Positions 1 through 57,749 of a stretch of DNA of 64,000 nucleotides are shown here, one piece after another. The stretch comes from Bilabrum cf. latius. Taxonomy: Eukaryota. The position numbers and the translations under genes are program-made. Below the pieces are notes generated by a model, which did no database searches, was not told the DNA's origin, and saw nothing but the letters and a program-made list of their open reading frames with translations. The DNA is taken from contig OZ237752.1 of NCBI GenBank assembly GCA_965178125.1, forward strand, positions 868,001-932,000. Reading direction: 5' to 3'. Each line of letters opens with the position of its first letter. The stretch's first letter is position 1.

Positions 1-916
1 GAAGCACGTCGCGAGCGGGCACAGCTTCACATTCTCCCCGGTGGGGGCCTTGAGACAATGGCACAGCCGCCAGGTACAGACATTATAGACGGATGACAAC
101 CCCGTATCGGCCACGAACTGTGACCCGTCCTTCGTGTCTGAGTACTCGGGGGAGCTTGCTTGCAGCTCCATGGCAGGCAGCTCATCTGCAGCCGAATCTG
201 GGGACGCTGGCACCACATACTCATGGCCATCACTAGCCAGTGATGTCAGCATCAGATTGAACAGGTCACCTGAAGCCTCGCTGCCGATGGACCGCCTCCG
301 CCGGCAGGGTGACATTCTGTTCGCTTGCGAAGTGGTGCTCTTCGACGACGACCTGCACGACATGGGCATCAGCAAGGCCGTGGTGAAGCTTCGAGTCATG
401 AAAGACTGTTTCCTGCTCCTCTACAGGCATTTCTATTACAATGCGCTAGACGCAACCGACAAGCTCCGCCTTCGCGATGTGCGCCTGGCCGCCTGCCTTG
501 ACGAAGCACCGAGCAAGTGCTCGTGCGAGTTGGTCGCAGATATCTAGCTCCGCACAGGTGCAGCCATCGAGGTAGCCAGAAAGACTCCCGGACTCGGAGC
601 CGGAGCCGCTCCCTGGGCCTCGGCCTCGGCTAGGCCTGTGCCTGGCGGCGCTTCGGCTGCTGCGACCGGCGGCAGCAGGGCAGGCGCCCCTGCAGCGGCG
701 GTCGCCGGCAGCGCTGTGTCTCGGCCTGCGACTAGTGGCGCGGACTCGGGGGCGGGCGTGGCTGAATCAGCGCTGCGGCGCGTTGCACCAGCCCCTGATT
801 CGATTAGCGCCCCAGGGTCGGATGCTGCGAGGGCCCTGCGGGTGACCGAGCAAGAGGTGTTTGCTGCCCTCGAGCCGACCGAGCACATTGTGGCTGCACT
901 TCCACTGAAATCGTGA
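1..916 (+). CDS. TIP41: TIP41/TIPRL-like PP2A regulator, 5'-truncated by the window edge; in-frame TAG at 86-88 and 545-547 read as Gln
   Basis: Frame from nt 2 gives H..SGHSFTFSPVGALRQW...DPSFVSEYSGEL and ILFACEVVLFDDDLHDMGISKAVVKLRVMKDCFLLLYRHF...LRLRDVR, which matches the TIP41 core (ILFYDEVVLFEDELADNG..LSVKIRVM). ORFs 134..547 and 638..916 share a frame and end at TGA 914-916. Confidence 0.85.
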
Positions 917-1095
917 TTGCGTTGCTGCAGCAAGACCGTTGAACAGATAGATCTATTCGAATCTACACCGTGGGCATTTGTTCTCATTCTCATTTCATCG
1001 AGAACGAGGTTAAATGACCGCACAGTTTATTCGTTTCGACGTATTCACAGTTCAACGCAGGCTGTCTCACGCAGCTATAGTATTTTGACTCCGAT

Positions 1096-2490
1096 ATGAG
1101 CGGCATTTGGACCAAAGAGACAGTAGCAGAGAGAATCGGAGCGAATGCATCGGATGCCTTGCTGCTACCGCCAAAGGGAATGGGGACCACGCACGAGCAC
1201 AGCTCCATTGTTGAGGATGCGAATGTTACTCTGTACCATGCTTCTGCATAGGCACTTCGTAGCTGTAAATGGATGGAATCGAATGGGATTGTTGCGATCG
1301 TGAACGCTGCTGGTTTCGAGCTTCGAAAGTTTCCGCGAGAGGCCCTAAAGGCATCCGGTATTCACTTGCACGATATCGACATGGATGACTCTGAGAAGTG
1401 GGTCGGTAGCAACGATGCGGTGGAGTTCCTGGCGGCGGCAGCAGCGCATACGCAGGCAGGGCTGGAGCGAGCGATGTGGCTCGTTCTCGAGGCCTCAAAA
1501 CCGGGCAGCGCCGGGACAAAAGGGCGACCAGCCCATGCGAGCAGTACGATAGAAGATACACCTTACTCTGGGAACGCAGGCCCCTCCGCGGAGCCACCGC
1601 TGCCGAAAGCCGGCGTGCTAGTGAACTGCGCGATGGGCCGCAGCCGCAGCTCCTCGGTCGTCCTCTGGTGGATCCTGACTTACGCACAGCCAGACTGGAC
1701 GCTCCTGGACGCGCTGTGCTTCCTGCGAAGCAGACGCACGTGGGCCTACCCCAGGCTGTGCTTCCTCAAGATTCTGTACCGCCTGTCGCTCGTGCCCGGC
1801 AGGCTCCGCGCCTCGGTCGCTCGCGGCGGGGACCTGGACGAGCTGACAGTGCATCCAGTGGGCCATTCTATGGATGACACGGCGGCATCGGGCCATTCTA
1901 TGGATGACACGGCGGTATCTGGCCATTCTATCGATGACACGGCGGCATCGGGCGGGGCTGCGGCTGCCACGGATACGGTAGCTGTGGTGAAGGCGGGGTA
2001 GGTGGCTGCCGCAAGACCGGTTGCTGCAACCGCCGAGACACAGAGGATAGCAAGTGGCCCAGTCGAGTCGGCTGCTTCAAAGATAGCAGCAGCGTCAGCT
2101 GGGCCTACGATTGAATCAGCTTCGGGAGTTTCCGCTGCTGTAGAGGATGAATCATCCAAGGGAGGGATGGGCAAGGATGCAAGGGAGCTCGATTCCGAGC
2201 TCGATTCCGAGCTCGATTCCGAAGCAGTTGCTCGAGCCTTTGCTCGCTTCTGCGCCTCCATGGTGAACCCGCGGGAGGACGAGCACGCAGGAAAGTCGCT
2301 CCCGGGAGGCGTGGAGGACCTAGAGTGGCTCCATTCTGCGGGCAAGCATTATCTGCACAAGGCGGGCGCCGCCGTGGCGACTCTGATTGCAATCCAGCCT
2401 TTGCTTTCCATCGAGGACGCCAAGGCCCTCCTCACGAAGCACAGGGGGAATGCCGAGCTAGCTGCCAACGAGGCTTTGGCGCTGAGATGA
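1096..2490 (+). CDS. Dual-specificity protein phosphatase with C-terminal UBA/CUE-like segment (~464 aa; TAG at 1249 and 1999 read through)
   Basis: ATG 1096 is in frame with ORFs 1273..2001 and 2002..2490. DSP motifs GIVAIVNAA, DIDMDDS, VLVNCAMGRSRSSSVV and ALCFLRSRR..AYP are present. The tail LSIEDAKALLTKHRGNAELAANEAL is UBA-like. Ends TGA. Confidence 0.8.
1861..1950 (+). repeat. Coding 30-bp tandem repeat x3 (GHSMDDTAAS)
   Basis: ggccattctatggatgacacggcggcatcg-type unit at 1861, 1891 and 1921. Confidence 0.9.
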
Positions 2491-2833
2491 CCGACGCGCG
2501 GTTTGGCGCGTATTCTGTTGTTTGATGTAGTGCTGCCGACGCCCAAGGTCCAGGTCAATTCGTTAGCCGAACCTTACCTTACTAAACACGAAACCGAATT
2601 ACCTGCGGATTCTGAAGAAACGACGTCTATACCTCCATCCCTTGGAAGTTTTCTTTGATTCCTTTTGCCATGCAAGCTGATATTAGTACAAAAATTGCGC
2701 TATGCCGAGAAGATATCGTAAGTCCGGGCTTGAAGTGTTTCGGGGATCCGTCGCATTCAACGGCACTCCTACCACTGCTGTTTCACGCCCTCTCTAGCCG
2801 CAGAGTCGGGTGCGTCGAGCTGTTTAGCAGTAC

Positions 2834-3663
2834 ATGAGTGTTCTTCGCGATGCCGAGGAGGCTGCTTCGAAATCTGCCGCTGATGTAGACAGGGTAAGGG
2901 CACCTTGGTACTATTGAGCTCGACCGAGCTCGAGGCCGCTTGCTGCACTTTTACGTTCCAAAGGCATCACATATTTTTTTCGTAGATAATTGGAGAGAAA
3001 GAGGTGGTAAAGAAGAATTATATGCGAGCGAAAGAGAGTTTTCGAACAAATATTGGGTTCGTCCCGGGGACAGAGGCCGGACCGCTCAAGTCCCAGTTTG
3101 ATTAGCTCAAGGGAAGGTACACCGAGCTGAGAGACCAGTTCAAGGCAACTGGCATCGAGGAGAAACAGACACGGGAATCGCTGCTCGCAGGAGCAAACCG
3201 AGCTGGAGCCGCGGACGCCGAGTTCGGTGGCGGGGCCGCTGGGGCCGCCGGGGGCAGCAAGAACATGGCCGGCCTCAGGCGCGCAAAGGACACGGAGATG
3301 TAGAACGAGCGCGACTTAGAGCAAGGCCTCCGTACGATGCGGGAAGCGAACGAGACGCAGCGCGCCACGAACGAAAAGCTGGAGGAGCAGACCACCAAGC
3401 TGCGCGAGGTGGACGACACGCTCGAGAGCATGGACCAGGAGCTCAACAGGGCCAGCGCGCTGCTCTTCGACTTTATCCGGAGGATGTACACGGACAAGAT
3501 CATCATTGCGTTCACGTGCCTCATCTTCCTGGGCATCCTCGGGATCGTCATATACTCGTCGGTGTCCAAGAACGACCCCTTCAACGTCCCGGATGAGGCC
3601 AAGCCGCCGGAGGACGTCGTAAACTCAGCGACAGGGGTTGTAGATGATTCGCAGGGCTCATGA
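2834..3663 (+). CDS. Qb-type SNARE (Vti1/NPSN-like); exons ~2834-2893 and 2986-3663; TAG at 3103 and 3301 read through
   Basis: ATG 2834, donor GTAAGG at 2894, acceptor TTTTTTCGTAG ending 2985. SNARE heptads (ATNEKLEEQTTKLREVDDTLESMDQELNRASALL), RRMYTDKII, then a C-terminal TM helix. Ends TGA. Confidence 0.8.
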
Positions 3664-3961: not shown

Positions 3962-4444
3962 TCAATCTTTTGGCTCAGGAAACACGTTCTCGCGGATTAA
4001 TGTGAGGAGCTCAGGGGGATTCGCACCGCTGAGCTTCCCAATGATAACCTTGTGTTTGATCACTGCAAACGCCGGTTTGCAGCCGTCTTGAGTAGGGAAC
4101 TATTCCTTCTGCACGTCAGAGAGCAAGCTGTCGTCCATGGTCAAGAATTTAACGCGCTTCTCCCACTTCTCAAGCTCCAAGGTTAGCATTTCTAAAGTAG
4201 GCCCCATCACGACGCATGGCCCACACCAATCCTTGTGCAGGTCCAATACTGCTTGGATTAGGCCGGAATAGGGAGAAAGGACGTAAAATCAGCGTGAGAC
4301 GGTAAATCCAAACATGCGCGTCCGGTTCAAGCTCGCCAATCTCTTACCTACCAATATATTATCGCTTTTCTCCACCCATTCGTCAAGATCATCCGCTGAT
4401 GCAACAGGAAACTGGATCTACTGCTTCCCTCTTCGTCTAGCCAT
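3962..4444 (-). CDS. Thioredoxin-like protein of the NME8/TXNDC3 or outer-arm dynein light chain type (127 aa); exons 4444-4348 and 4248-3962; TAG at 4418-4420 and 4100-4102 read through
   Basis: Manual translation: MARRRGKQ(Q)IQFPVASADDLDEWVEKSDNILVVLDLHKDWCGPCVVMGPTL...KE(Q)FPTQDGCKPAFAVIKHKVIIGKLSGANPPELLTLIRENVFPEPKD-TGA. WCGPC active site; GTAAG...CAG intron 4347-4249. Confidence 0.85.
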
Positions 4445-4803
4445 GATACAATAGAGCTGCAATGCTTGTATTGCCGTTGACGATCCGAGTTCATGCCAAA
4501 TGACACGTTATCACTATATTGTTGACGAGCTCCCCGCAAAAGTGACGCTTGGCGAAGCAATCCAAATAAAATCTTTCTTTTATTTCTTTTTATATCAGCC
4601 AGCTGGTTCGAAATCTTGCGTCGCTGTTGCCGTTGCCATTTTGGTAGTTGCACATAATTGGAATTTGGTTGCCTTTCGCAAGAAAACTGGTTGTACCAAG
4701 TGCGTACTGTGTGAGGGGGGCGTACAAAATAAGCTGCCTGTATCCAAATTGCTGACAGGTGGGTCAATTCGGGTCTGTGTTGCAATCGGAGGCGCTACCA
4801 AGG

Positions 4804-7800
4804 ATGGACTTTGAGCAACGTTCCCGGTTTAAAACAAGCCCATCAGGCGATCGTTCAGCGGATGAAATGCCAGACAATGTGAACCATGGCCACCTTTTGA
4901 GCGGAATTAGTGGCCACTCGGCTGCCGCGCCAGCCCGGCCTGTGGAGCGAACCTCCGTGCGGGCTGCTTCATCTTTGATGCAAACACGGCATGGCGTCGG
5001 CATAGCCGTAGGCTCTGTTTTTGATGTCGATGGGGATCGTCGCGCATCACCCTCCCATCCGCGGTTGCCAACAGCGCCGGCTGCATCGGCCCGGGAGGGG
5101 GCGTTGCGAGAAGCTCCGGCAACCGGCCCGCACCTGCCAAGCAGCGCGGGAGCGCAGTTGCACCCAGATGACGCGGAATCTGCCGGCAGATCACCTCACA
5201 CCCAATCGTACGTGCGCGTTTCCGGTTCTCGGGCCGGGGACGCGACCGGTCGCACAGTGCGGGGGCGGCGAGGCCGCGCATGGGGGCCTGGGTCGGACGC
5301 CGGCAGCAGCAGGACCACGACAGCACCTTGCATTGGCAGTGGCAGTGGCAACAGCAGTAGTATTCGGAACGGATTGGGCCCATCGCGGCTCCCTGTCGCT
5401 TCTGCGGGAGATGGGGGGGCCATATCGGATGCAGATGCAGGCAGCACCAGCGGAGGCGGCAGCCCAACGCGGGTGTCAACAGGTCGAAAACGGGCGGGTC
5501 AGCCCGTCCACGCACTTGGAACAGCTGCGCCTGCTGGGGATGGGGAGGGGGGCCAGTCCACCGGCAGGAGTGGCAGCACGCAGCGGTCGGGGCCGGGCCA
5601 GCGCAGCTCTGTCGGTGCTGCGCTGTTGGGAGGTAGAGGTAGAGGTAGAGGTGCCGGGCAGGGGGCTGGCACGGGGCCTGGCACGGGGCCTGGGCCTGGG
5701 CGGGGCCCCTCGGCGTCTCGGAGGAGGCCGGCGGCGAGGGACGGCAGTGTGACGAGTGATAAGTCTCGGGGGTCTGTCGGGCGGCAAGGGGCGCAGGGGC
5801 GGAAGCGGAACGGGAGGCAGGGCAGGGCCAGGGAACAGCGGTCCCAGAGAGGGGCTGCCGCCGGTCAGGGCAGGAGCAGGGCACACGGAGGCGCCAGGGG
5901 CGCGGGCCCGTCCTCCTCCTCCTCGTCATCGCGGCAGAGTAGCGCCCGCGTGCGACTCAAGTGCTACTGCAGGGGTGTCATCAGGGTGGTCACGGTGGGC
6001 TCTTCCTCATCCTTCAGGGGTCTCTTGGGCCGCCTGGCTCAGGACTTCGGTTTGCAGGCGGTCCCACAGCTGAGGTACGAGGACGAGGACGGCGACCTCA
6101 TCGTGCTGTCCTGCCAGAACGACCTCAACGAGATCGTTCACCACTTCGCGGGGGGTACCGCCAAAGTGCACCTTACCCCCAACCCTGAGGAACAGCAGGC
6201 GGTGGCCCACAGCGCCCTGGAATTGCCCACGCCGGGGGCATCGACCAGAGGGGCTTTGGATCCGCTGCCTGCTGCCGGCAGCCAGCAGCAGCAGCAGCAG
6301 CAGTCGGGGGAGGGCAGGTCCGGTCATGCCGCTGCTGCAAACGGGAGCGCCGAATCGAAAGATGCCGCTACCGGAAGTGAAACTGCCTCGCCGCCCCTTG
6401 AGGTGGCGGGCAGTGGTAGAGCGGCGGGCACTGGCACGGTGGCAGCCGGTCTCTTTGTGCCTGGAATCGGCCCGAGGGACGGTGGAAGGGGGGTTGCCAA
6501 CGCAGCGATAGTCGTTGCAACCGCAGCTCCGTCATCGTCGGCCGCTGCCGAAATACCCGGGGGGTCTTCCGTGCATTTTGGAGCCGCGAGCCGCAGACGG
6601 GCCGGTTCACCGGACGTCACCCGGCCCGGTTTCAGCAGGGGATCTATGCTTCGGTCCAGGAATGACAGCAGGAGGAGCGGAAGGGCCGTGCGGACGATTC
6701 GGAGGTGGCAGCGGGGCGAGAAGCTGGGTCAGGGCGCTTTTGGCGAGGTGTACGTGGGGCTGGACAAAGACACGGGCGAGATCTTCGCCGCCAAGCAGAT
6801 CGACGAGGACGAAGTGGGCCCGTCGGAGCTCTCGTCCATGCAGCACGAGATCACCATGCTGCAGAGAATGGACCACGACAACATCGTGAGGTACCTGGGC
6901 ACCCAGAAGGAGGGCTCCACTCTCAGCATCTTCCTTGAGTACGTTCCCGGGGGCTCCATCCGCTAGCTGCTCAACCGCTTCGGGGCGCTAGACGAGGCTG
7001 TCATTCGCGTGTACACGAGGCAGCTGCTGCTGGGGCTCGAGTACCTGCATTCGGCTGGCATCGCGCACAGAGACATCAAGGCTGGGAATCTGCTGGTGAC
7101 GAACGACGGGACGGTCAAAGTCGCCGATTTCGGGGCCTCCAAGCGTATGCAGATGGCATCGATGAAGTCCGCTTCCCTGCTGGCATCGCCGCGCCCGGGA
7201 ACGGCCGGGAAACGCAAGAAGGGCGGTGGCGACGACTCGGAGCGATCTGGGGGGTCCATGCAGCAGGGGCCCATCGGGACAGCGCTCTTCATGGCACCAG
7301 AGGTCATCTAGCAGACGCAGAGCGGGAGGGGCTGGCGGCGGGCGGACGTGTGGTCTGTGGGCTGCACCGTCCTTGAGATGGCCACTGGTAGGCCTCCATG
7401 GTCGGAATACAGCAACCCAGTGACGGCCATGTATCACATTGCGTGCACCGATGCCGTCCCCGAGCCGCCCGAGTCGCTCTCCGCAGAGGGCAAGGACTTT
7501 CTGAGGCAGTGCTTGCAGCGCGACCCAGGCCGGCGCCCCGACGTCACAAAGCTGCTGCTGCACCCGTTCGTGTCGAAGATTCCGGACGCCTCACTGCGAG
7601 CCACATCGGCGACGCTCTTGCATGCATTTCCACAGAGACCGTCCACGGGGCACGGCAGGCCGGCCACGTCCCTCCGGGGCGATTCCAGCTGGCTGGGTGC
7701 CATGTCTCCGGCAATGGGCTCGAGGCTGGCAGGGGCGGACTCCGACGCGTTCGGGCTGGAGCAGTGGGCCCCGGTGCCTCCCGCCGGTCGGCTCGAGTGC

Positions 7801-10800
7801 AGCTCTCCGACGAGCGCGGCCGCGGGAGGAAGGGCCGCATCGAGAGGGGCCAGGGTGCGAGCAGGCAGCACTGGCAGCGGCAACGGCAGGAACACGAAAG
7901 ACGAGAACGAAAGGGGGTTCGACCACGCGGGTGAGCTTCCCTAGATCGTGTCGGGTGGGCCCGACCGTGCCGAGGTGGAGGGCGAGGGCATCGGCCTGGA
8001 GTCGGCGCCTGGTACTGCCTCTGCCTCCGACGCGACAAGCGCCTCCTCGTCGGCCAGGAGGTCCCCGGCAGCGGACTACATGCGCGTGCACGGCTCGCCC
8101 GATTCTTCCGTTCGGACTGTCCTAGCCCCCAGCAGCGCGGATGTGGAGGGTAGCCTCGCTGACAGCGAAGGCAGCGACTCAGCAGGGGGAGAGGGAGACG
8201 GAGCGGGCGCGATGCCGAGCAGTGGTCGGCGCGGGCGAGGTAAGAAGCGGCGCGGCAAGATGCCCTCACTATTCGAATCACTGGGCTTTCCCCTGCCTGA
8301 TGAAGAAGGTGCAGCTGGCCTGTCCTCGTCTGACGCCGGTGCGGCCCGCAAGGACCTGACGGCTGGAGGTTCGGAGGAGCAGAATGAAGACGGGCTGGCG
8401 TGGGCGCCGCCGCTCGATGGACCCACGGACGGGCTGGCGCAGGGCTCCCTGCCCAGCATCGTGGAGGATGACGACGAGAGCGGGGAGGGGCGGCGGGGCA
8501 TGCACCGGTTGGGTGGCGACGGTTCTGATAGCGATGCTGGTGAGGGTGATGGGATTAGCATGGCTTTCGCTGGGAACGGCGCTGTGGCTCGAATAGGCCG
8601 TGGTGACATTAACACAGGTGAGGATTCGTCCGATTTGTCCGCCTCTGGCGAGGCCATCCACCGCGGGATCATTCCTGGGCGTCCTGCCCTGGGGTCCCTG
8701 GGAGGCTCCATGGAGCTCATGTCATCGATGGAGGAGGGAAGCCAGGCGGAAGCGGAAGGGGAGTCGGTGGACGAGAGCGGTACGACCGGGCGCGATGATC
8801 CCCGTGATGACAGGCCCAGCCCGGTCGCCCGTCGAGGCTAGAAGTCTCCCAGGCCCAGAGGAGACGCGGACCGACTGGCAGTGCGCCGAAGGGAGAGGAC
8901 AGGTCCCGCCGACAGGCCCAAGACGACCATGACCCGCGGTGCCAAGTCGGTAGGGAGGGGCCTGCGCGCTGGCTCCAGGGAGCAGTCCCCGAGCGGCGGC
9001 AGGGCGGGGCGGCAGAAGCGCGTCAGAGGTGCCGGCGGCGCTCTACGCAGGCCTGCCGCCAGCAGGCCACGCGCGCTGAGTCCGGCGGCGAGGGAGGCTC
9101 AGCTGCGCAGAGCGGCATCGGCACAGGACCGGACCTCTTCGGGTGGTCGCGTTGCTGGGCTGCGTGCCGGTGGCGTGGGCAGGCAAACTGCCGGGAAGGC
9201 GTTCGCTGGCAGCCCGCCAAAATCCCGCCAGCGGCCAGGGCCCAAGCCAGGGGACGGTGCTAGCGCCGGAACGAAGGGGAGCGGCGGTGGCGGCCGGGGA
9301 AAGGGAAGGGCAGGGTCCCCGCTGGCCACTGCAACGCAAGCGAACGGTAGCAAGACGGTCGGCAGGGTCGCGACGAACGGCAATCGTGGCAAGAAGCAGG
9401 CGACGGCTCGCGCCATCCGTGCGCAGGGGGCGACCACCGGTCGCGGCGACAGGCCGGGGGCAGAAGGGTTCGTCGTGGAAGGGGGTGCAGGAGCGATGCA
9501 TGGGGGAGACGCCTTGGATGAAGAGGAGACTCGGGCTTAGATCACCAGTAGCAGCAGCAGCAGCCATGATAAACCAGGTGGGAAATGGACGAAAGAGCAT
9601 GGCTCAAAGCCGTTGGCTGCTGGTGCGACGGGAGTGCTCCCGGACGGCTCGCCACTCCAGAGGAGAGGTGGGGACGGGGGCCCTGTGGGAAACCCGCCCG
9701 CTGCTTCTCTGTCTCTGCAACCAGACAGTCGTGACGGCAGCAGCATGCTGGATGCATCGGAGTCCAAGCGTGGCGACCGGTCTTCCATGCACCGCTACCA
9801 AGCGCTGTCGCCCCGCAAGAGCCCCATCACCGCGGGCGAGGCCATCACGCCTCCTAGGAAGGAACCTGGCCTGTCCTCCTTTGCTGATTCGCACGCCGGT
9901 GGCAGCGGCAGCCTCCGGCTGCCCAAGCAGGAAGCCAGCCCGTTGCCTGGAAGCCGTCGGCTGGCACCCCTGCCCCTGCGTGACGACCCGCTCGACCGGA
10001 CAGGCGGGAGTCTGGCCATGAGCATCGCCACTGAGCTGTCCGGGGCTGGCGATACCGGTGCAGCTGCGAGCCCAGCCGATGGCGGCCAGGCGGTTGACCC
10101 CTTCGCCCAGGCCGATGCGAACGGACTAGACCGAGCGGGAATCGCGCAGCAGGGCGTCTCTGTCCGCCTAGGGACCGGCATCCTTGGGGGCACTGGCAGG
10201 ACCATCGGCACGGTGCTGTCCGTTGACGATGATCGAGACGCCGACGAGCTCGCCAACGTGACGCCGGGTGGCTCCATCGTGCTTGGCAGGGAGCAGAGCG
10301 GCGGCGGTTCATCCTCCTCCTCCGCGGATGGGCCCGCACTCGAGGTGGCGTCAGACAAGGGCAGTGGGTCAGACGATGAAGATGAGTACGAAGATGATTT
10401 CAGCGACGGGTCTGACAGCGTGCTGTCGTACGGCGCCACTCCCGAGGCATCTGCTGCTCGAGAAATTGCGGCTGGTAGCAGGGGCTCTGCAGGCAGTTTG
10501 CTCGCGCACGAGGAGGAGGAATGGGAATCGCGCTGTAGTGGGCGTGGACTAGAAGGTGCAGAGGATGGTCCAGTCAGCGGCAGGAGCCCTCATCCCGGTG
10601 CTCCACAACACAACGGACGACGGACAGGAGGAGACGAGGGCGCAGTCAACGATGCTAGAAGTCCGCGGCATCGTGTGCAAGAACCATAGGATAGCTGGCT
10701 CCGGTGGGTAAACCACGAGGCCCAGCGCATCGCAGCTGCGGGCTCGGGCAGCCTCGACCACGTGAGCTGCCTGGAGCACGGGCACTCAGCCACGATCACG

Positions 10801-39692: not shown

Positions 39693-39742
<50 letters not shown>

Positions 39743-43442: not shown

Positions 43443-43481
<39 letters not shown>

Positions 43482-45899: not shown

Positions 45900-46278
45900 C
45901 GTGTGCCACATGCGCTGCTGGGAGGCAGACAGTCTCAAGAGGCAAGCGAAAGAATGTAGGTAATGTCCAATGCAAGGTACCCTAGACGAGCCTTGGGTGG
46001 GGTGCGCCTGCATGCGCCAGCCTGGGTGCTGCCGAGGACCGACCCACGGTGCCTATGTCGCAATATTGCCAGAATGATTACGAAATGTATATTGATAGTA
46101 TCAAATGCAAGCCATCAAATGCAGTGTTCGTGCGCCAGGCGCGTACTTGGGTGCCGCTAAAAACGAAACCAATATTTTCTACGGCCCAAACAGCACCGTA
46201 CTAGTCGCGGAATGCGACGCACACTTCCCAGCCGCCTACTGCATCAGCGCAAAGAGATACGACCATCTCACCAGAGAA

Positions 46279-47997
46279 ATGCGACAAATCATTTCTGTAC
46301 TAGTGGCTCTCCTCGCCTGCCCGGCGCTCAGTGTGCATGGGCGACGAGCAGCAGGCCAGCAGCACCTTCGCAGCGCTGGCTCTACGTTGTCAGCCTCGGT
46401 CCGCGCCAACAGCAGGCACCAGAGCCGCGGCAGCCATGCGGCACAAGTAAACAGTAAGTCTGATAAGCTTGACACGCACTCCTGCGACGTCAGCGCCTTG
46501 GCCGCGAGGAAGCCAGCAAAGGGCGACACGCTCCGGAGAGGCGAGATTATGCAGTCCGCCGCCGGCCCACTCGAAAATGGCTTGTCCAAGGATTCGACGC
46601 GTGTGTGGCTCCGGGCTGACTGCAAGCTGGTCGTAGATGGCAAGGATAAGGCGGGATTGTTCATCTCGGGTAACTCCGAGAAGCTGGCCGACCACTGCGC
46701 GCTGCTCTTGACGGATGCGTCGTGCAGCACGCAGGGAGACCTGGCCATCATCGACACGGACACTGGCAAGTACCTCTGGCGGGTGGAATCATCTATATTC
46801 ACACCTGAGGTGGACACGTTTCTGGTCCAGGGGGACGGCAATGCCGTTCTCCTCCAGGAAGGCGCGCAGCTGCTGTGGAGCACCGATACCGGAGATAACA
46901 AGGAGGGGTCGGGGGAGTTCCACTTTGACCTGGAGGTGCGGGAGGACGTGCACAGTCTGCAGTGCGGTGCAGGGGCCCTGCAGTCGTCGTACCACCAAGT
47001 GACCGACGTCGACGTGCTGTCTCCGGGGCAGGTGCTGCGAGCCGGGGCCGCCTTGAAGGCGGGCGAGGGGGAGGGGGCCGAGCTGCGCATGCAGGGAGAC
47101 TGCAACTTGGTGGTGTACCGAGGGGGCAAGGCGCGCTTTGCGACCCATACGGCGGGCAAGGGGACCGAGGGGAAGTGCGCACTCGTCATCACGGGGGACG
47201 GGTGCGACACCCAGGGCGACCTGGCCATCGTGGACAGCGCCTCCGGGCAGTACATCTGGCGGGCGCCTACCTCGCTGATGAACCCGGGTGCAGATACCCT
47301 TCGTCTGCAGGGGGACGGGAACGCCGTCCTGTTCCAGCAGGGAGGTGCTATCGCGTGGTCTGCGGGGTCGGCGAACCTGGATAGTCCTGGCGAAGACAAG
47401 ACCTTCGGCAATGGTCTCAAGGCGGCGGAGCTGCAGGTGGCCATCAAATTGGCGGCTTCGAGTCGATGCGACCCCTAGGCTCTTGCTAAGCGACCTGCCG
47501 CCAGTGGCGAGTAGCTGTGGAGCGATGAGGTGCTGGCCATGGGGCAGTCGCTCCGGTCAGGTGGGGCCTACAGCAAGGCCTCTCTGACGGTACAGGACGA
47601 CTGCAACCTGGTGTAGACGGATATGAACGGACATATCAACTGGAAGACGGATAGCCAGGGCAAGGCCCAGAAGTGCGCACTCGTCATCACGGGGGAGGAG
47701 TGCGACCGCGCGGGAGATCTCGCTCTTGTGGACATGGACAGCGGGGCGTACCTGTGGAGCATCGACACGTCCTACATGCGGCCCACGGCCAGGGTGTTGC
47801 AGTTATTGGACAGAACCATGTACCTGCGCCAGCAGGCTACGCTCTCAAGTATGTGGTGGTCGGTTGTCGACGAAGGATTCTAGTCAGATGATCCCATGTT
47901 GGACGAAGCCAACCACCACCCTCCGCCCCGTGAGGGACAACCGGAAGGCAGTTTCGTGGAGGCGTTCACTTATTTGAGCTAGCCCCAGCAGAAGTGA
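46279..47997 (+). CDS. Secreted protein with three bulb-type (GNA-like/B-lectin) domains (~572 aa, 5 in-frame TAG)
   Basis: Signal peptide MRQIISVLVALLACPALSVHG. Motifs LVQGDGNAVL, MQGDCNLVVY, LQGDGNAVLF, VQDDCNLV. Three internal repeats of C.L.[LI]T...C...GDLA..D...G.Y.W. TAG at 47476, 47512, 47614, 47881, 47980; ends TGA 47995-47997. Confidence 0.8.
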
Positions 47998-48718: not shown

Positions 48719-51700
48719 TCACGCTAGCCCGCCCGTGGCAGCCCCCTGCATGACGCTGTCGTGCACCCACGACGCATCGGCCGAGCCAGTCGTGTCTCCT
48801 TCCGTCTCGCTGGCGGATGCATCCACGCTCTCGTCGCCCACGCTGCCCTTGCTGCCGCTTCGGGTAGGAGTCATCCCCGCCCCTGCAGCGTTTGTTCCCT
48901 GCTCCTCCCCTTGGCCCCGGTCTTCTCCCCTCTCGTCTCGGTCAAAGTCTCCTGCTAAGTCGCCTGCTTGACTCTCCCCCGCCACCGAACCTGCCTGCTC
49001 AAGCCCAAACCAGCCTCGCACCATGTCAAGCAGTCCGGGCGCCTCTCCCCGGGACCCTAACTCCTTGGGGGTCTGTCTGCCACTGCCACCATCACACCGT
49101 TCAATCTGGCTGGAAGCAGGATCGGATAATCCACTGCCCTCAGGCCCACCCTCGCTCCTCCTCGACAGGCCATCCACTTTGCTAGCAGACTCCCCACCGG
49201 ACCTGTCTGCCTAGATCTACTCAATCCCACATCGGCTGCTGCCAGTCGCAGCGCTGCCTCCGGCGCCACTGCAGCCCGTGCCAAAACCGGGCTCTTCAGA
49301 TCCGCGGCCGAATGACATGCCCCTGCCAGCCACGCCCTCCCCACGGATCGGGGACGGCATGTCTCCAACACCAGCTTGGGTGCTGGCACCGACCTCTGAC
49401 GACGAGCCATTCGATGATTCGTTGGGCGCCGCCGACGCCGCATGTGACGAGTGCACTCCAGCAGGAGCAGCAGCTATTGCACCTCCAGATGCACCATTCC
49501 CAGCCTCACCCGCACCGCCGTTCGAGCTCATGTCTGTTGTGTTTGCGGACAGGGACAGCAGCGAGCCTGACGATACCTGCGCCTCACCACCTACTTGGGA
49601 CGGACTTGTACCGCCGCTTGCGCTGCTGCTGCCCCCACCAGTGGCCTGGCTCGAGCGCGGTGCAGAGCCTCCAGGATCTCCACGAGCAGGGTCCGATACA
49701 GCCGAGGAGGCAGACAGCAACGAGGCCGATGAAGACTCTTGCTGGAGCCGTTCGAGACGATTGGAACTGCTCGACCCGCTCCCACTCGTGGCACTCGTGG
49801 CACCTGACTCCGCACTTCCAGCACGACTAGATCGCGCCCCCTCCTGGCAATCTCCTCCGCCTGGGATCAGGGTGCGACTGGCCTGCTCGCTCGTTGGGAG
49901 TAGGAGCACCACCTCTCCAGGCACCCAGGCAGCGTTGACTCGGCGGTACCGCAGCTGTAGCATCTGCTTCCCGGCGGAGGAGCGGACCGTTTCCGCCTTG
50001 GCCTCCATCAGAACGACCTCGTTCCTCGCGTCGCTGAGAGTGCCCGGCTCGGGCATGACAAGCCGCGGCCCCGGGGTGCCATCGGGGCCTGGAGGCAGCT
50101 GGCCGTCCCAGGGCAGGGCGAGGCCGCAGTGCCCGCACAGGACGAATAGGCTCTCGCCAGTGCCGATGAGGCGCTGCCTCCGATCCAGCTGGGGCATGTC
50201 CCACTCTATCTCCCCGTCGTCCTCGTCCTTCACCCGCAGCCTTAGCTCCCAAGCGAGGGCGGCCAGAGGGCCAGCACCGGTACCCGCGCTGGGCTGGGAC
50301 CTCCGTGCGCTCAGCACGCTGGCACGACCAGCCTCTCTCGCAGCCCGGAGGGTCTCTGCCACCATCGCGGGGTCCAATTCGTCCCCTGCATCGGCCGCTT
50401 CGTCGGGGCCTGCCCCTGCCCCTGCCCCGTGCACGGAATCTGCACCGTTGGCGCCGCCAACAAGCCCACTCGTGCCCGTGCCGGAGCCGCCTCTGGGCCT
50501 CGTAAAGCTGGGCATGGGCGCGTCTCCCTATGAGGGGAGCAGCCAGTCTCCGCCTGCCGCGATGCACAGCCGCTGCAGGCCCTTCTGCACATCGCCCACG
50601 GTGGCCTCGGGCAGCAGCTGTATGGAGCGCCACTCCGTCGTGTACGGCTGCCGTCGCTTCGGCTTTGCAACCCGCTCTTCCTGCGCCTTGGCATCGTTGG
50701 ACGAGCCTTTGCTTGCCTCGAGCGATGTAGAAGACTTATTTGGGACGGGCGTCGCCGATGGTTGGCCTTGCCCAGCTGGTGCTGGTGCTTCGCTCGATGG
50801 ACGAGGCGCAGCAACCGCTCCCTGTGGATGTCCTTGCACAGCGGCTGGCGCTGCAGTTGGCGTCAGAAGACGTCCATTATCGTGCTGGTTGGCATCGCTG
50901 GAGCTGTCAGCACGTCTCGCGACAGGGGTGTGCTGCAGGGCGGGCGCAGCGCTCTGCCCTCTCTGCATGCGGCCTGTGCTGCTGCCCTCTGATGACCCCA
51001 TGCTCGATCGCTGGCTCTTGTCGCCCGCTGGAAGGATGGACCCGTGAGGGTGCATGCTCAGCAGGGTGTCCTGGTGGTCGCCCGCCGTGCTCCTCGATCT
51101 CTGGGACTGCAGGGGCCGCGAGACGGTATGGGTGCGACCACGCGCGGGTGGGTCCGCCACATGGGTGGCGCTCCCCGCCTGCCCGCAGCTAGCATCGGCC
51201 CGCTGTTCGTGGCGCAGGGAGCTAGTACCGGTTGCATGTCCCAGCTGCACCTTGCGCTGCACGCTGTGCCAGGCAGCGACCATGCTCCCGCTCTGTGTGC
51301 TGGGCGGGCCCACAATCGGCGAGATGTGGACTGTGCCCGCATCGGCGTCGGAGTCACTCGTGTCACCGTCCTCCACCGAGTAATTGCTCGACTCCCAGCC
51401 GCGGCCGGTGGCGCCAGCGCCGTGCTAGTCACGTTCGCTCTCGCTCCGCTGGCTGGCACTGGCATTATCCGTAAAAGAATCAGGAACTCGCGGCGTGCCG
51501 CGGTAGCCACCAGCACCATCGCAGGGCACGCCGGTACTGAACCCACCGGAACCGCCGAGACCACGGGTCCAGGCAGGTGGGCGGTGTACCATGCCGGACC
51601 TCGTCCTCGGCGAGGCCTGCGTCCCGGAGGCAGCCGAAACGGCGTGCCAGCCCATGCGCCCAGGCCCGCTCGTATCGGCGCCTCCAGCCCCCGCAACCGA

Positions 51701-53917
51701 TCCACGCGCCGAATGAGCCGCAGCGCCAGTGCCGCTCCGACGAGTGGGCCCGCACTCGCTGCGCACCCCATGGCTCCCTGCGGCGCCCCTGCCGCTGCTG
51801 CTGCCGAAGCCCTCGACCACCCATTGGCGGTTGCTGCCCAAGATGCCGCGAGGCATGTCCGCGGGGAGGGCACCGGAGGCGGTCCGGGGAACAAAGCCCA
51901 TCATGCCCCTGGTTTCTCGCGGGCTGGGAGTGGACGGGGCCCCGCCTCTGCCCATCGCGCTTGTCCTCGTCCTCGTCCTGGACCTGGTGCCCGTCGACCG
52001 GGCGGAGTCCACGCCAGACCGCCCGTCCGGCAGCCTCTCTCTCAAGTCCCCGTGGCTGCCGCGATACGGACCAAGCGCTCGCTGCATGACCGCAGCAGGG
52101 CGTCCCACCGCACCCCGCCCCAGCGGCAGCAGACGAAGCCTGTGCTCCGCCCCGGCCCCCCCGCTCTCGCTGCTGCCGCCAGAGGGCCCCCCCTCGAGAG
52201 GACTTCCTCCCGGACCTGAGCCTGTATGCTCCCGACCAATCACAGGCCCAAACCCGGGCCCGATCGCCAGCATGCCATTGCCGTGCTACCCCTTCAGCTC
52301 ATCGCTATCGTCACCGCGATCGCCATCCATCGGGTCGTGGTCGCGCGCTGCACCCGGCAGGCTGTCTGTGGCCCACCCTCCCCAAGCATCCGCCGCCACC
52401 CTCCCGAACCTCCCCACGCCTACCGATCCATCTGCACGGTTACCCACGTCCCAGCTGCCCCGTCGGCCCTCCGAGGCCAGCTGAAGCCCCTCTGCCTCGG
52501 CCAGAGCCAGCCCAAGGTCGCCTGACCTTCGATCTCGCCTGCGCTCCGCCTGCAGCTGCCTGATCCGGCGATCCTCCTCGAGCTCAACGGATAAATGGCT
52601 GATCTTGGGCGCAGCGCGCTTCTTCCTTGATGACCGGCTGCCCCTATTGCTCTTCCTGCTGGAAACTCTCCCCGTCTTGCTTCCACTGGCAGTTTCCGAC
52701 CTGCTGCCTGCGGACCGATCGTCGGCCGTGTTGGGCCCTGCGTGGTGGCCTGCCTGACCAGGAACAGCGTTGCTGCTGCCAGCGCCGTGGGGATCCCTTC
52801 CTGCTGTTCCCCCCCGCGAATTCGAGCCGGCATCGTGCTCAGAGCTCTCCCTGGAAGCCGCAGACGCCGCCATGGAGGAGGCCGCGGAGGGCAACCTGCT
52901 CGAATACTCCCCCGTCAGACCGACCGATGGGAGACCCGCGATGGTGCCATTGTGCTCCCTGGATACCAATCCAGAGCCGCCCCCGGGAAGGACATCACCG
53001 CCTGCGAGGTGACCGCCGCCTCCAGTTGGCGAGGATGGTGACCCGTCCTCGTCCCCGGAGCCCTCCCAGGCGTGGGCGCCCCACCCGCCGGCGGGGTAGC
53101 GCACCGCGGTGCCGGACGAGGAGGCGCTGAGCAGCGCAGGCGGGGGTGCCTGAAGCGTTCCATTGCAGTGCACTGCGCCCGCAACAACTTGCGCGTCGCT
53201 GAGTGGCCCTGTGGAGCTGCTCCTGCTCCTACTCCTACTCCTGCTCCTGCTTACTTGCGGCTGCACGGCGAACCCCTCTTCAACGAGCGCGCTGGCGCTT
53301 GCTCGCTCTTGCGGCATGGCCATATCCCGACATTCCAATTCGTTGGCATCATCATCGCCATCGCCGGTTGCACTGTCGTCGTCATCGTCCAGGTCAGTGG
53401 CGGTAGACTCGTCGGCCTCCACTGGCACCGTCTCCCTGCGGACGAGGGGCGTGCGAGAGCCAGCCTGCTCATCCGGTGCGCCCCCTTCATTCGATGTGAC
53501 TGCATCATCGTTGGCGGATGTTCTGCCCAGCCCAGCAGGTGCCTGGAACGACTCTTCCTCGTCGAGCTGCAGAGGCCCTCCGGGGAGGACCAGCCTTGGC
53601 ACTGCTTGTGCTCTCTGTGGGCCTTTGCTCGTGGATTTTGCGCCCGACTCCGAAACCTTTTGCGATGAGTGGGATTTATCTTCATGCCGAGGCACTCCTT
53701 GATCGCTGGATGAGCTACTTCTGTCGCTCCCGGAGTGCTTGGATTCAACTGCTGCGCTCGGTCGCTCCTCGGCGGGACATGCAGTTGCTCCTGCTTGCTC
53801 TGCAAGCTCGTCGGAGAGCTCGCTTAGTTTTCTGGAACGATTGCCACTGTCAACATTCCCTGTCGGCAGTTGGTGCAACCCGTGCACATCTCCTAGGCCA
53901 CCAGGACTAGATGGCAT
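48719..53917 (-). CDS. Large Ser/Gly-rich low-complexity protein of unknown function (>=1730 aa, 5 in-frame TAG); may have further 5' exons up to ~54350
   Basis: Five ORF-track fragments are in one frame, separated by TAG (52286, 51425, 50528, 49217, 49211); TGA at 48719-48721. Only short globular-looking islands, at ~49900-50650. Acceptor-like TTATTCGCAG upstream near 53995. Confidence 0.65.
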
Positions 53918-54652: not shown

Positions 54653-56344
54653 TCACGAGGGCTTCAGCGAGCCCCCTTCCCGGCTGGCTGACATGGATGG
54701 GTACAGCCCACCAGCTGCAACCGCCGGGCGGCCGCTCGCTCCGCCAGCCCCAGCGCGGCGCACCGCCCTGTCCATGCCGCTTGAGGCGATATGTGCGGGG
54801 GTCCGGCGCGCGGAGGGGCCCGCCCTCCCGCCGGCCCCGCCGCTCGATGCAGCCGCGCGCAGCATGGCCTCAGCGTCCATCGAGCCTGCGGAACCACCGG
54901 TTGCGTGCGCGGCGACAGGACCCACCCCGGGGGGTGGCGGCGGAGGCGGGAAGGACTGCATTCCCGGGGGTGGGGGCGGTGGGGGATTTCCCCCGGCACT
55001 CCCCCTCGGTGGGGGCGGGGGCAGAGAGGGGGGTGCCGACGGAGCGGACTCTGACCCCAACAACGCCCCGCTCCCACCCCCAGACCCCCCCCGCTGGGCC
55101 CACCCGATTCGGAGCCGCACCCCGTCCACGACCAGCCGCCCGCGGGTGCGGTGCAGCGCCGACTGCGCGTCCTCCGTGGAGGAGTACTCCACAAAGGCCA
55201 TTTTCCGCTCCGAGTTGACCCGCACAGACTCGAGGGCACCGTAGGCCCCCATGGCCCGCCTGACCCCCGCCTCCCCCAGGGGCGGCTCCACCCCCCACAG
55301 GCACAGCGTGGCGGCATCCGCGCCGGCCTTGCCCGCGTCCAGCGCCTTCATCTTGGCGTCCTCCCTCTCCATGAGCCTGTCCGCCGAGCGGTCCGACGTG
55401 CCGAAGAACCTGTCCTTGATGCCCTGCTGCACCCCCTTGTGGTAGTAGTCCTTGTTCTCCCAGTAGTCCGCGGGGATGTCGTGGCTGTAGGGGCACTCCG
55501 CCCCCCGAGTGCATGTCCCCCTCAGGAAAAAGGTGCAGAGCTTGGGCCGGTTGCGCTCGTACCTCGGCTTGCTCCTCTTCAGCCGGAGCAGCTCCTCGTG
55601 CGCAGCGGGGGGGACTGCGCTCGCTGTGAATCCGGCGGCGCCCACGTCGCTGCCCGTTGTGGCCAGCTGCTGCCCGGCAGAGGCGCCGCCGCCTGCGGAA
55701 CCGCCGTTCGTGAGAGCGAGGGGCTGCTGGGCGCCTCCCGACGCGGCGCCGGCCCCGCGGGCGGCCTGGAGGGCGGCCAGCGCGGTCGTCTGCGTCTGAT
55801 TCTCGATTGTTTTGCCCGCCTCCTGGGCGTAGTATAGCATCATCGTGTCGCTCTTCGGCTGCACTGCGCCCGGGGCGAGGCCGCCGCCTGCCTGAACCGA
55901 CGAGCCGGCGGCGCCAGAGTACTTCCGGATCACCGCATCCCTTACTTTCAGAGGGAGACCGTACGTCAGGTCGTACAAGCAGCACTGGCAGCAGTTCTTC
56001 AGCTTCGAGCAGACCTAGCAGATGACCGTTCGCTTCATCCTAGCTTTGCGCCCCGGCTGCCACAGGAACTACGTCGTCACCCTACCGCACACGTTGCATT
56101 CAGCCCCGGCAGGTTTCTTCATCATCCGGGCGTAGGGATTGTCTCCTAGGCAGGTCTCTGCGATTTGATAGGGAAGAAAGGCGGTTCGAGTGGTATGCGG
56201 TGCTTTGGGAACGTTGGAAGGTGCCCGAACTGGATGTAGCAGCAGAAGCGGACGACAAATACCATAAAACTCACCGCACAAACGAGGCATTTCAACCTCT
56301 TCTGCCTTTGCGAGATTCGTATTGCTCGGTAGGCCAACCGCCAT
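54653..56344 (-). CDS. RBM22: Pre-mRNA splicing factor RBM22/Slt11 (N-terminal Zn-binding region, CCCH finger, RRM); exons 56344-56275 and 56157-54653; TAG at 56069 and 56015 read through
   Basis: Spliced translation PRLCETCLGDNPYARM...ECNVCGR..(Q)FLWQPG...KRTVIC(Q)VCSKLKNCCQCCLYDLTYGLP matches RBM22 ([43 protein letters not shown]). Also PRYERNRPKLCTFFLRGTCTRGAECPYSH, QGIKDRFFG and an RRM (AFVEYSS). Ends TGA. Confidence 0.93.
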
Positions 56345-56542
56345 GGTGCTGGGCGGATTCGAAATGACGGGAACTTGATCGATTGTCGCCAACCGGGTTC
56401 GCGGCGAACTTCTTGAAGGTTCGTTCGGTTTCGCCAAGGCCTTGTGCGAGGCGTGCGTGCGCAAGACAGCTTGAACGAGGAATGGTAACTCGCGCGAAGC
56501 CTACAAAAGAAAGAATTCTGTTCTTGAACCGAAGCACCTGGA

Positions 56543-57749
56543 TCAGAGAGCCTCCACCTCTGCCCTCGAGAGCCCCTCGTGCGCCGTCAGCCCCTCGTGG
56601 TTCTGGATCGTGTCGTCCGCGCCCTTGCTCACAAGGTACTCGCCCAGCTCTCTGAACCCGTACGCGAACAAGAAGTGCAGCGCGGTATTCCCCGCGCTGT
56701 TCTGCACGTTGGGGTCCGCTCCTCGCCTCAGCAGCTCCTTGAGGAGCCGCTTGTTGCCGTTCTGGCAGGCCGTGATGACGAGTGTGTTCCCCTTCTCGTC
56801 CCTGTCCCTGTCCATGTCCAGCACGCCCTGGCTCAGCACGTCCCTGAGCTCCTCCATCTTGCCCGCCCGCACGAGAGAGAAGGCAAGCCGCACCGTCTCG
56901 GCCTTCCGGTCGTCCTCCGATTTCTCGCTGGGGTCCACCTGCTGCACCCTCTTCTCGCCCGTCCGAGGGTCCACCACCACCTTCATGCGGTCCGTCTCTC
57001 CCTCCAGGTCACCGACCATGAAGGGGCCGGGGGTCGGGTGCGGGGCCGTGTCCAGCCGCACGCTCACGTCCACGGGGGCCACGAGGCCCACCACGGCCGG
57101 CACGTTGGGCAGGTTCAAATCCCTAGAAAATTGAGCCCCCAGCACGCGAGCCTCGCGGGCCCGAGCGCGCAGCTTCTGCGCGTCTTTGGGCGGCCGCAGC
57201 CTCCTCCACTGCGCCCCCGGGGCGGCGGGCGGGCCTGTCTTGGGCCGCCCATGGTCCCCTGCATCCCCCCCCCAGAGGGCCATGTCATTCCCACCCCCCT
57301 TGCCTTGGTCCTGGTCTTGTTCCCCCGATGGCACCACCCGGCCGCCAACCTCCTCCCATCCTTCGTCGCTTGATCCCGCGCTCCCGATGCTCCCCTGCAT
57401 GCCCATGCCACCGCCCATGCCCATGCCCACGGACCCGCCCATGCCACCCTCCGTCACACGCGCCCCGATGGCGGTGCCACCCATGATGGTCGCCATTTCA
57501 CCCCCGTGACGACCATCAGCACCACCGTGAGATGCACCCATGCCCCCGCTTTCGCCGTGAGTGGGCGCGGGCGGGGGCTGGGGCAGCCCGAGCGCTGCAG
57601 CGAGCTGGGCCAGAAGCTGCGGGTCCTGCTTGATCTGCGCCACCACGTCAGCCGACGTGGCGGGTGGCCCGCCCCCGCCTCCACCTGAGGGAACAAGCGC
57701 CATGGAGTCACCGCTGCCGCTATGCGTGTGTTCCCCCTCGAGAGCACCG

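Follow-up and report, generated by a model that had tools for sequence, protein, structure and literature searches.

Reading of UAG, UAA and UGA in a GC-rich 64-kb window: a candidate nuclear variant code

Reading frames that run through TAG and close at TGA raise the question of which of the standard stop codons an organism still uses as stops, and in the stretch of DNA analyzed here (64,000 nucleotides, hereafter the window; GC content 58 to 72%, about 63%), this question centers on the status of UAA. The reading preferred here, to which we assign a probability of about 0.55, is a nuclear variant code resembling table 15, in which UAG is a sense codon (most likely for glutamine), UGA is the working stop codon, and UAA is a seldom-used terminator.

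Gene models, their ends, and spliced contigs

Fifteen gene models were considered in the window, and as open reading frame models they are only approximate because the genome has introns. Thirteen of the 15 are solid, with Pfam matches in nine of these and a top-ranked codon-usage score in all 13. The plus strand opens with a TIP41-like gene (2..916, 5' end beyond the window; Pfam TIP41, E 7.5e-18), which contains two in-frame TAG codons and ends in TGA at 914-916. It is followed by a dual-specificity phosphatase-like gene (1096..2490; Pfam DSPc; two TAG; TGA 2488-2490) and a Sec20-like gene (2600..3663, 5' limit approximate; introns 2718-2803 and 2893-2984; TGA 3661-3663), whose Pfam Sec20 match of 23.5 bits lies under the 27-bit cut-off. 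A small gene on the minus strand (3962..4457; intron 4249-4347; one TAG; TGA 3962-3964) is supported by a spliced contig. The next plus-strand gene encodes a protein of 2712 aa with PB1, protein kinase, and WD40 domains according to Pfam (4804..12942; eight TAG; TGA 12940-12942), and it is followed on the minus strand by a gene with Pfam haem peroxidase, two DOMON, cytochrome b5, and FAD-binding domains (13069..19000, 5' limit approximate; introns 17954-18089 and 18221-18493; TGA 13069-13071), which carries three TAG codons in its long exon. Three further minus-strand genes have no known family, namely those encoding 1509 aa (19137..23666; nine TAG; TGA 19137-19139), 1392 aa (31700..35878; 10 TAG; TGA 31700-31702), and 1732 aa (48719..53917; five TAG; TGA 48719-48721).

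The plus strand also contains a tentative short model of 57 codons without ATG (24820..24993; TGA at 24991; LOD 7.8), which is possibly the last exon of a gene, an Ala-Pro repeat gene of 1909 aa (25788..31517; 14 TAG; TGA 31515-31517), and a bulb-lectin repeat gene of 630 aa (46105..47997; five TAG; TGA 47995-47997). The remaining minus-strand models are a ZGRF1-like helicase gene of 2261 aa (37265..44050; Pfam ZGRF1-like_N, AAA_11, and AAA_12; 16 TAG; TGA 37265-37267), an RBM22/Slt11 splicing-factor gene supported by Pfam STL11_N and by PDB and database alignments (54653..56344; two TAG; predicted in-frame intron of 117 nt at 56158-56274; TGA 54653-54655), and a large gene with C-terminal ankyrin repeats (56543..64000, 5' end beyond the window; four TAG; TGA 56543-56545), which has the highest coding score of the models. 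Many overlapping antisense open reading frames are also listed for this GC-rich DNA. The first-pass annotation had placed a terminal TGA in every one of the 15 models, and a TGA is indeed present on the strand given at all 15 lower coordinates. In the lectin gene, the codon that follows the TGA is a TAG.

Spliced contigs from three studies (runs X5, X6, and X7) are essentially letter-identical to the window and carry the TAG codons unedited. These runs, whose label reads "RNA?", are termed RNA-type here because their contigs are spliced. The contig joints are GT..AG, with no mismatched letters in the pieces listed, and five introns are shown by spliced contigs within positions 1-20000. Splicing at GT..AG with TAG kept in the exons implies that the mRNA carries UAG. 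In five genes, a contig ends 32 to 196 nt 3' of the TGA, and TGA as terminator is backed by these nearby ends. For example, the contig of the phosphatase-like gene (1037-2577) ends 87 nt past the TGA, and the 150 nt that follow this stop contain neither TAA nor a further TGA in frame; the contig of the kinase gene (9101-12989) ends 47 nt past the TGA, with neither codon in frame before that end. The Sec20-like gene has GT..AG joints in contigs of all three runs and a contig end at 3859, the small gene is covered in three runs by a spliced contig (3930-4248 joined to 4348-4457), and the peroxidase gene, whose 5' exons were also seen, has a spliced contig as well as contig ends in two runs, at positions 12987 and 12990. 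No strain differences of the type TAG/CAG or TGA/TAA occur in the X5, X6, and X7 contigs across 20 kb, in which three C>T differences from the window are found (two silent, at Thr and Glu codons, and one replacing Gly by Asp). Run X8 yielded short mismatched pieces only.

Absence of UAA from frames and from gene ends

Codons were counted in 13 ATG-to-stop or open-ended models comprising 17,737 sense codons, and the in-frame totals are 82 TAG, 0 TAA, 0 TGA, 133 CAA, and 550 CAG. TAG is present in frame in 13 of 13 models, and Pfam domains run across TAG sites. These totals confirm the earlier statement that in-frame TAA is absent despite about 80 TAG and regular use of CAA. Because the frames were defined without reference to TAA, its absence is a result in its own right rather than a consequence of the procedure. 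When the 15 frames are extended from each TGA back to the preceding in-frame TGA, they contain 88 TAG and a single TAA (23757-23759, minus strand), which lies 15 codons into its frame and 31 codons before the first ATG and therefore in the leader of the gene at 19137..23666. Read in its two alternative frames on the sense strand, this coding DNA contains 24 and 41 TAA (65 in sum), so the trinucleotide itself is not scarce there. When TGA and TAA are both treated as stops, no coding-like open reading frame ends in TAA.

Composition lowers the number of TAA codons that should be seen in frame, since A-ending codons are disfavored in the 13 models (CAA share 0.195, TTA share 0.10). If TAA were used like TAG, 9.1 to 28.7 in-frame copies would be expected, with a probability of finding none between 1e-4 and 4e-13; the lower figure corresponds to the lowest A-ending share of 0.10 (P 1.1e-4). 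The comparison of TAA:TAG with CAA:CAG, which the first-pass annotation had proposed as a check, gives 19.9 expected TAA at the CAA share (P 2.4e-9), and the density of off-frame TAA gives 32.5, with the probability of none falling to 8e-15. TAA thus behaves as a non-sense codon (0 in 17,737 codons vs 9 to 32 expected), which argues against table 6.

Under the preferred table-15-like code, UAA would have remained a non-sense codon, which would account for its exclusion from reading frames. A change of a tRNA-Gln anticodon from CUG to CUA would allow pairing with UAG and not with UAA, in line with passages of PMC11687900 that reason that a CUA anticodon reads UAG only. In addition, eRF1 would no longer recognize UAG, and UAA would continue to act as a terminator that is seldom used in a GC-rich genome. 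Neither tRNA-Gln nor eRF1 genes are present in the 64-kb window, and Rfam at gathering thresholds gives no match in it and no rRNA; the only tRNA, tRNA-Leu(CAG), is seen only in a permissive Rfam run. The earlier proposal of a table-15-like code with UAA as a rare or nearly unassigned stop fits these data with the terminating role of UAA as a putative one, TAA being found at 0 of 13 to 15 gene ends, and its caveat that a 64-kb window cannot settle the status of UAA stands.

A distinctly less probable reading, which nevertheless carries some weight, is that UAA is unassigned, with an eRF1 specific for UGA, like that of table-6 organisms, and tRNA-Gln(CUA) as the only such tRNA. UAA would then be left without a decoding tRNA and without efficient termination, and selection would purge it from frames and gene ends alike, leaving UGA as the sole terminator. 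No other reading predicts the zero in frames (0/17,737) together with the zero among stops (0 of 13 to 15). If TAA made up 29 to 37% of TAA plus TGA stops, a range taken from the non-coding TAA:TGA ratio and a rough tally of relatives' open reading frames, its absence from 13 to 15 genes would have a probability of only 0.013 to 0.001. Of two peroxidase orthologues from metagenome relatives with the standard code, one ends in TAA and the other in TAG, and TAA stops therefore occur in the wider group. The pattern of tandem stops also gives no excess of in-frame TAA just past the TGA stops, as the first downstream TAA or TGA is TAA in two of the 15 genes and TGA in five, with none within 150 nt in eight. 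However, a sample of 15 long genes, probably of weak expression, is too small to exclude a terminator used at low frequency: the zero count bounds the TAA share of stops below about 20%, and a true share of 10% would leave 0/15 with a probability of 0.21. No nuclear genome is known to us in which one of the standard stop codons lacks an assignment. If UAA were unassigned here, the code would have 62 sense codons, UGA as sole terminator, and a single codon with no role in either decoding or termination, in a living GC-rich stramenopile caught between table 15 and table 6.

Table 6 itself, in which TAA and TAG both encode glutamine and TGA is the sole stop, appears improbable. It agrees with TGA at 15/15 listed stops within the window, and the rarity of TAA could be attributed to poor decoding or to GC bias, given the 58 to 72% GC content and the disfavored A-ending codons described above. 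However, no TAA occupies a glutamine position alongside the 133 CAA and 82 TAG, at least 9.1 would be expected even at a share of 0.10, and the 65 off-frame copies show that composition has not removed the trinucleotide. The earlier argument against a ciliate-type code, with UAA and UAG both read as glutamine, is accordingly upheld by 0 TAA vs 82 TAG, with 9 to 29 TAA expected.

The residue encoded by UAG

That UAG is a sense codon for glutamine is the most likely interpretation of the alignments. At a few sites, UAG occupies conserved glutamine columns, of which the clearest is the column at aa 68 of the peroxidase, with glutamine in 10/10 database homologues and in the 3/3 PDB alignments shown. 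Similarly, the TAG at aa 1539 of the helicase corresponds to glutamine in the relative's protein P0040 (79% identical), with identical flanks on both sides, and the TAG at aa 110 of RBM22 corresponds to glutamine in the 4/4 PDB alignments shown and to H, K, R, R, and R in five closer homologues. In a crude BLOSUM tally of 11 columns at nine sites, glutamine ranks first of the 20 amino acids by a modest margin (Gln 4.6, Ala 0.4, Glu -4.6, and Leu -11.4).

It is improbable that UAG is a sense codon for something other than, or in addition to, glutamine, such as the leucine or glutamate of other UAG reassignments, or that it is read ambiguously, in which case the picture for TAA and TGA would be the same. 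Three TAG sites align with hydrophobic residues of the I/V/L type, namely aa 818 of the peroxidase (I/V/L in 9/11 homologues), aa 92 of RBM22 (L/A/V/T in homologues), and aa 504 of the lectin (V in both internal repeats). In the helicase, the TAGs at aa 827 and 1402 lie opposite G and A in P0040, and the tract KE-TAG-TAG-EE-TAG-EY aligns with an E-rich tract of the same protein. TAG is also not enriched beside glutamine codons (7/164 neighbors, 1.1-fold), and in the kinase, TIP41, and helicase PDB alignments, the TAG sites fall at variable or unaligned positions. Against this reading stand the invariant peroxidase column, the helicase site with identical flanks, and the negative tally values for glutamate and leucine. 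In favor of the preferred reading, the open reading frame of P0040 stops exactly opposite a CAG of the helicase gene (aa 1616).

That a genome with the standard code produced this pattern by chance or through its composition, given many introns or errors of assembly, is very improbable, for although high GC lengthens random open reading frames, the 82 TAGs lie in frames across which Pfam domains run, the TAGs are kept in the exons of spliced contigs, and the longest frames (2727, 2485, 2261, 1909, 1732, 1630, 1520, and 1469 aa) exist only with TAG read through, compared with a longest frame of 1386 aa under table 11.

Comparison with known codes and relatives

Nuclear codes that treat UAG and UAA differently are rare, with about half a dozen lineages described in passages of two papers (PMC5304391, PMC11687900). 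Reassignment of UAG alone to glutamine with UAA retained as a stop, the table 15 pattern, is described there for Iotanema spirale, Protocruzia tuzeti, and two phyllopharyngean ciliate lineages. The window resembles these in that in-frame UAG fits glutamine, UAA is absent from frames, and UGA is a terminator, and it differs in being 58 to 72% GC and apparently of stramenopile origin. UAA is the predominant stop in Iotanema spirale and the phyllopharyngean ciliates, and the UAG-only lineages for which these passages give stop usage have UAA as main stop and are mostly AT-rich (PMC5304391, PMC11687900), whereas TAA ends 0 of 13 to 15 genes in the window. If UAA terminates here but rarely, its usage would be the reverse of that in those lineages. 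UAG has been reassigned to other residues, with UAA as a stop, in the rhizarian exLh and some ciliates (leucine) and in Scotinosphaera (serine), according to parts of the same papers (PMC5304391, PMC11687900). The uncoupling of UAG from UAA is shared with these organisms, but the conserved columns of the window favor glutamine, unlike the leucine of exLh and the serine of Scotinosphaera.

Table 6 is listed in portions of PMC11687900 and PMC5304391 for many ciliates, hexamitin diplomonads, some Ulvophyceae, Streblomastix, and Amoeboaphelidium. The window is like these in that TGA ends every gene and TAG fits glutamine, and unlike them in having no in-frame TAA (0 vs 9 to 29 expected). The GC contents of two Amoeboaphelidium genomes are 40.5% and 39.9% in an excerpt of PMC10608142, compared with about 63% in the window, and this genus is rejected as the source on that ground. 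Decoupled codes bear on how eRF1 distinguishes UAG from UAA and on the unused-codon stage proposed for reassignment by codon capture; if the pattern of TGA-only ends with TAA in neither role held genome-wide, the capture model could be tested on a natural case. A practical consequence is that gene callers using the standard code would truncate the proteins of this organism at TAG.

The window is most likely nuclear DNA of a GC-rich, intron-poor heterotrophic stramenopile near the bicosoecids, a placement that draws on the best named hits of two genes. Among named organisms, the best hits point to Cafeteria roenbergensis as the nearest relative, two of whose proteins share the peroxidase, DOMON, and cytochrome b5 domain set; at 48% identity, it is not a close relative. 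The best named match of RBM22 is to the diatom Fistulifera solaris (33 to 36% identity). No report of nuclear stop-codon reassignment in stramenopiles was found in the literature searched, in which PMC6733595 and PMC6723347 concern organelle codes only, and the code proposed here would, if true, be the first. The nuclear genome of Cafeteria roenbergensis, with ~70% GC and 1.67 to 1.89 introns per gene, is like the window organism GC-rich and poor in introns, but differs from it in that the available passages of its description mention mitochondrial UGA=Trp as the only non-standard code and note no nuclear departure (PMC6972860). The relatives' proteins P0001 and P0040 are present in the database as fragments only. 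L001 and L022, two metagenome relatives that do not bear on TAA in the window organism, follow the standard code, and their open reading frames are not longer when TAG is read through, with the exception of the L022 peroxidase orthologue, which ends in TAG and runs on when that codon is read through.

Stop codons and the status of TAA

All 15 gene models end in TGA on the proper strand (15/15), as the first-pass annotation had claimed. Coding frames were delimited by walking back from each TGA to the preceding in-frame TGA, a definition in which TAA plays no role, and the resulting frames contained 88 TAG and one TAA, the latter (23759, minus strand) lying 5' to the first ATG of that gene. In the 13 solid models (17,737 sense codons), frame 0 held 82 TAG, 0 TAA, 0 TGA, 133 CAA, and 550 CAG, which confirms the earlier count of no in-frame TAA against ~80 TAG, and the other two same-strand frames held 24 and 41 TAA. 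Were TAA to encode Gln and be used proportionally to TAG, 9.1 to 28.7 in-frame TAA would be expected, depending on whether the A-ending share is taken from TTA/TTG, CAA/CAG, or all third positions; the off-frame TAA density predicts 32.5. Across these expectations the probability of finding none is 1.1e-4 to 8e-15, and the absence of TAA from the frames is real and not a by-product of GC content.

Contigs from four sequencing runs (X5 to X8) were placed on positions 1-20000. The listed pieces from X5, X6, and X7 match the window without a differing letter and are spliced (GT..AG joints at 2718-2803 and 2893-2984; CT..AC joints of minus-strand genes at 4249-4347 and 17954-18089; a further joint at 18221-18493), and they are therefore mRNA-derived and carry the TAGs unedited. 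Contig ends, which approximate poly(A) sites only loosely, fall 32 to 196 nt past the TGA of five genes (2577, 3859, 3930, 12989, and 12987/12990), and for the genes with their TGA at 12940 and 2488 no further in-frame TAA or TGA precedes the contig end; TGA is therefore the terminator there. The convergent genes at 12940-13071 have stops 127 nt apart, and the contigs of the plus gene (end at 12989) and of the minus gene (ends at 12987 and 12990, in two runs) meet or overlap. The splice joints make the one-ORF models of the first-pass annotation approximate in structure. The peroxidase gene has 5' exons reaching ~19000, and the RBM22 gene very probably contains a predicted 117-nt in-frame intron (GTGAGT...GCAG) at 56158-56274 (minus strand), the excision of which restores the conserved ...PRLCETCLGDNPY..., matching the homologues.

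TAA is kept out of the frames as strictly as TGA and so is no freely used sense codon. As a terminator it was found in 0/13 solid models, 0/14 RNA-backed genes, and 0/15 listed gene ends of the window, which places its share of stops below 18 to 21% at 95%. With a true share of 29 to 37%, a range taken from a rough tally in relatives and the non-coding TAA to TGA ratio, the probability of seeing none would be 0.013 to 0.001; with a share of 10% it would be 0.2 to 0.25. By a codon-usage score trained on the same genes the 13 models rank on top, and when TAA as well as TGA was treated as a stop it yielded no TAA-ending coding-like ORF in the window, the exceptions being one exon that reads into a GTAAGT splice site and some short frames that are antisense or in repeats. 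TAA often serves as the stop in highly expressed genes, and the genes of this window are long and probably weakly expressed.

The best reading is that TAA is a seldom-used terminator (probability about 0.55). That TAA is unassigned and UGA the sole stop is a less likely but serious alternative, in keeping with the lack of TAA ends, and if it proves correct, the code would be a new variant beyond another UAG=Gln case. A ciliate-type code (UAA and UAG both Gln) with nearly no TAA is improbable, given 0 in-frame TAA against 9.1 to 28.7 expected and an exclusion as strict as that of TGA. The proposed table-15-like code, with UAA a rarely used stop or nearly unassigned, is thus supported in part: the case against table 6 holds, and TAA, seen at 0 of 13 to 15 ends, may still act as a terminator.

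The amino acid encoded by TAG

Some conserved columns point to Gln as the residue encoded by TAG. The TAG at aa 68 of the peroxidase lies in a column with Gln in 10/10 homologues having a residue there and in 3/3 PDB alignments shown, and that at aa 1539 of the ZGRF1-like helicase stands opposite Gln, with identical flanks on both sides, in P0040, a 79% identical relative. The 902-aa P0040 ORF starts just past a tract where the helicase gene has three TAGs and ends exactly opposite a helicase CAG codon (aa 1616), as would be expected if the relative also had a TAG=Gln code; the sister species behind it probably shares the in-frame stop-codon usage. The TAG at aa 110 of RBM22 is matched by Gln in 4/4 PDB alignments shown and by H, K, R, R, and R in five closer database homologues.

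Three TAGs at hydrophobic positions conflict with a straightforward assignment to Gln at those sites, namely peroxidase aa 818 (15310 region; I/V/L in 9/11 homologues), RBM22 aa 92 (56069 region; L/A/V/T), and lectin aa 504 (47614 region; both internal repeats have V). In P0040, helicase aa 827 and 1402 correspond to G and A, the kinase-gene TAG sites are variable positions, and no enrichment of TAG beside Gln codons was seen (7/164 neighbours). When 11 columns at nine sites were scored in a crude BLOSUM tally, Gln came first (4.6), against 0.4 for Ala, -1.9 for Val, -4.6 for Glu, and -11.4 for Leu. Judged from these alignments, Gln is very likely the correct reading, with few diagnostic sites behind it.

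Source lineage, known codes, and decoding

The best named matches of the peroxidase-DOMON-cytochrome b5 protein are from Cafeteria roenbergensis (48% identity, equal domain set), and that of RBM22 is from the diatom Fistulifera solaris. Best hits, rather than a tree, suggest a placement near bicosoecids, and the lineage with the variant code appears to be a stramenopile. Cafeteria has ~70% GC and 1.67 to 1.89 introns per gene, and the sole non-standard code mentioned in the available portion of that source is mitochondrial (PMC6972860). The fungus-related Amoeboaphelidium (UAR=Gln) was ruled out as the source by its ~40% GC, as given in Table 1 of PMC10608142. The peroxidase gene (13069-19000) is an unusual fusion of an animal-type haem peroxidase, two DOMON domains, a membrane segment, cytochrome b5, and an FAD-binding reductase. 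The same fusion is found in C. roenbergensis and, among metagenome and Logan sequences, in several proteins 1400 to 2000 aa long. Its metagenome relatives at L001 (6195-13060; 46% identity) and L022 (1171-6033; 34% identity) have ORFs that do not grow under TAG read-through, and the stop codons of their peroxidase orthologues are TAA and TAG. These more distant relatives therefore lack the code change.

According to the portions available of PMC5304391 and PMC11687900, UAG=Gln without UAA reassignment occurs in Iotanema spirale, Protocruzia tuzeti, and phyllopharyngean ciliates, a rhizarian, ciliates, and Scotinosphaera have UAG=Leu or Ser and retain UAA, and UAA is the predominant stop in I. 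spirale and the phyllopharyngean ciliates, whereas the genes of the window use TGA instead. A non-exhaustive literature search returned no report of nuclear stop-codon reassignment in stramenopiles, thraustochytrids, bicosoecids, or Bigyra.

A tRNA-Gln with anticodon CUA, a single change from CUG, could read UAG alone, following the reasoning outlined in PMC11687900 that CUA pairs with UAG only and UUA with both codons. eRF1 would have to have lost recognition of UAG, and whether it keeps UAA would decide between a seldom-used terminator and an unassigned codon; the 64-kb window holds tRNA-Leu(CAG) as its only tRNA gene and no eRF1 gene.

Gene content, repeats, and origin of the contigs

GC across the 64-kb window is 58 to 72%. 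The longest ORF under table 11 is 1386 aa, and reading through TAG yields frames of 2727, 2485, 2261, 1909, 1732, 1630, 1520, and 1469 aa. Pfam families were found in 9/13 translated models and none in four; they comprise TIP41, dual-specificity phosphatase, PB1 + kinase + WD40, ZGRF1-like helicase, haem peroxidase + DOMON + cytochrome b5 + FAD-binding, bulb lectin, RBM22/Slt11, and ankyrin, with a Sec20 match below cut-off in one model. The DNA is therefore eukaryotic, nuclear, and densely coding with few introns.

One sample contributes four runs that contain the region 8501-18500 in full; runs from two further studies, listed under different organism codes, contain most of it. The runs date from 2025. 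Letter-identical spliced contigs (1-20000, X5-X7) occur in runs assigned to three organism codes and three studies, and the source organism may grow together with other cultures or carry more than one label.

The tRNA-Leu(CAG) (44352-44434; ARAGORN) scored 46.2 bits with the Rfam tRNA model in a permissive run and was missed at the gathering threshold. After it comes a 143-bp tandem repeat (44422-45106; 4.8 copies, 99% matches), the unit of which starts with the final bases of the tRNA, followed by a 169-bp repeat (45077-45447) and by (GCAGGG)n at 45770-45899. The 1909-aa gene contains an Ala-Pro coding repeat with a 168-bp unit (28446-29065; 3.4 copies, 95% matches) and 35 copies of (TGCACC)n, also Ala-Pro coding (31007-31219), and antisense frames over these repeats likewise score coding-like.
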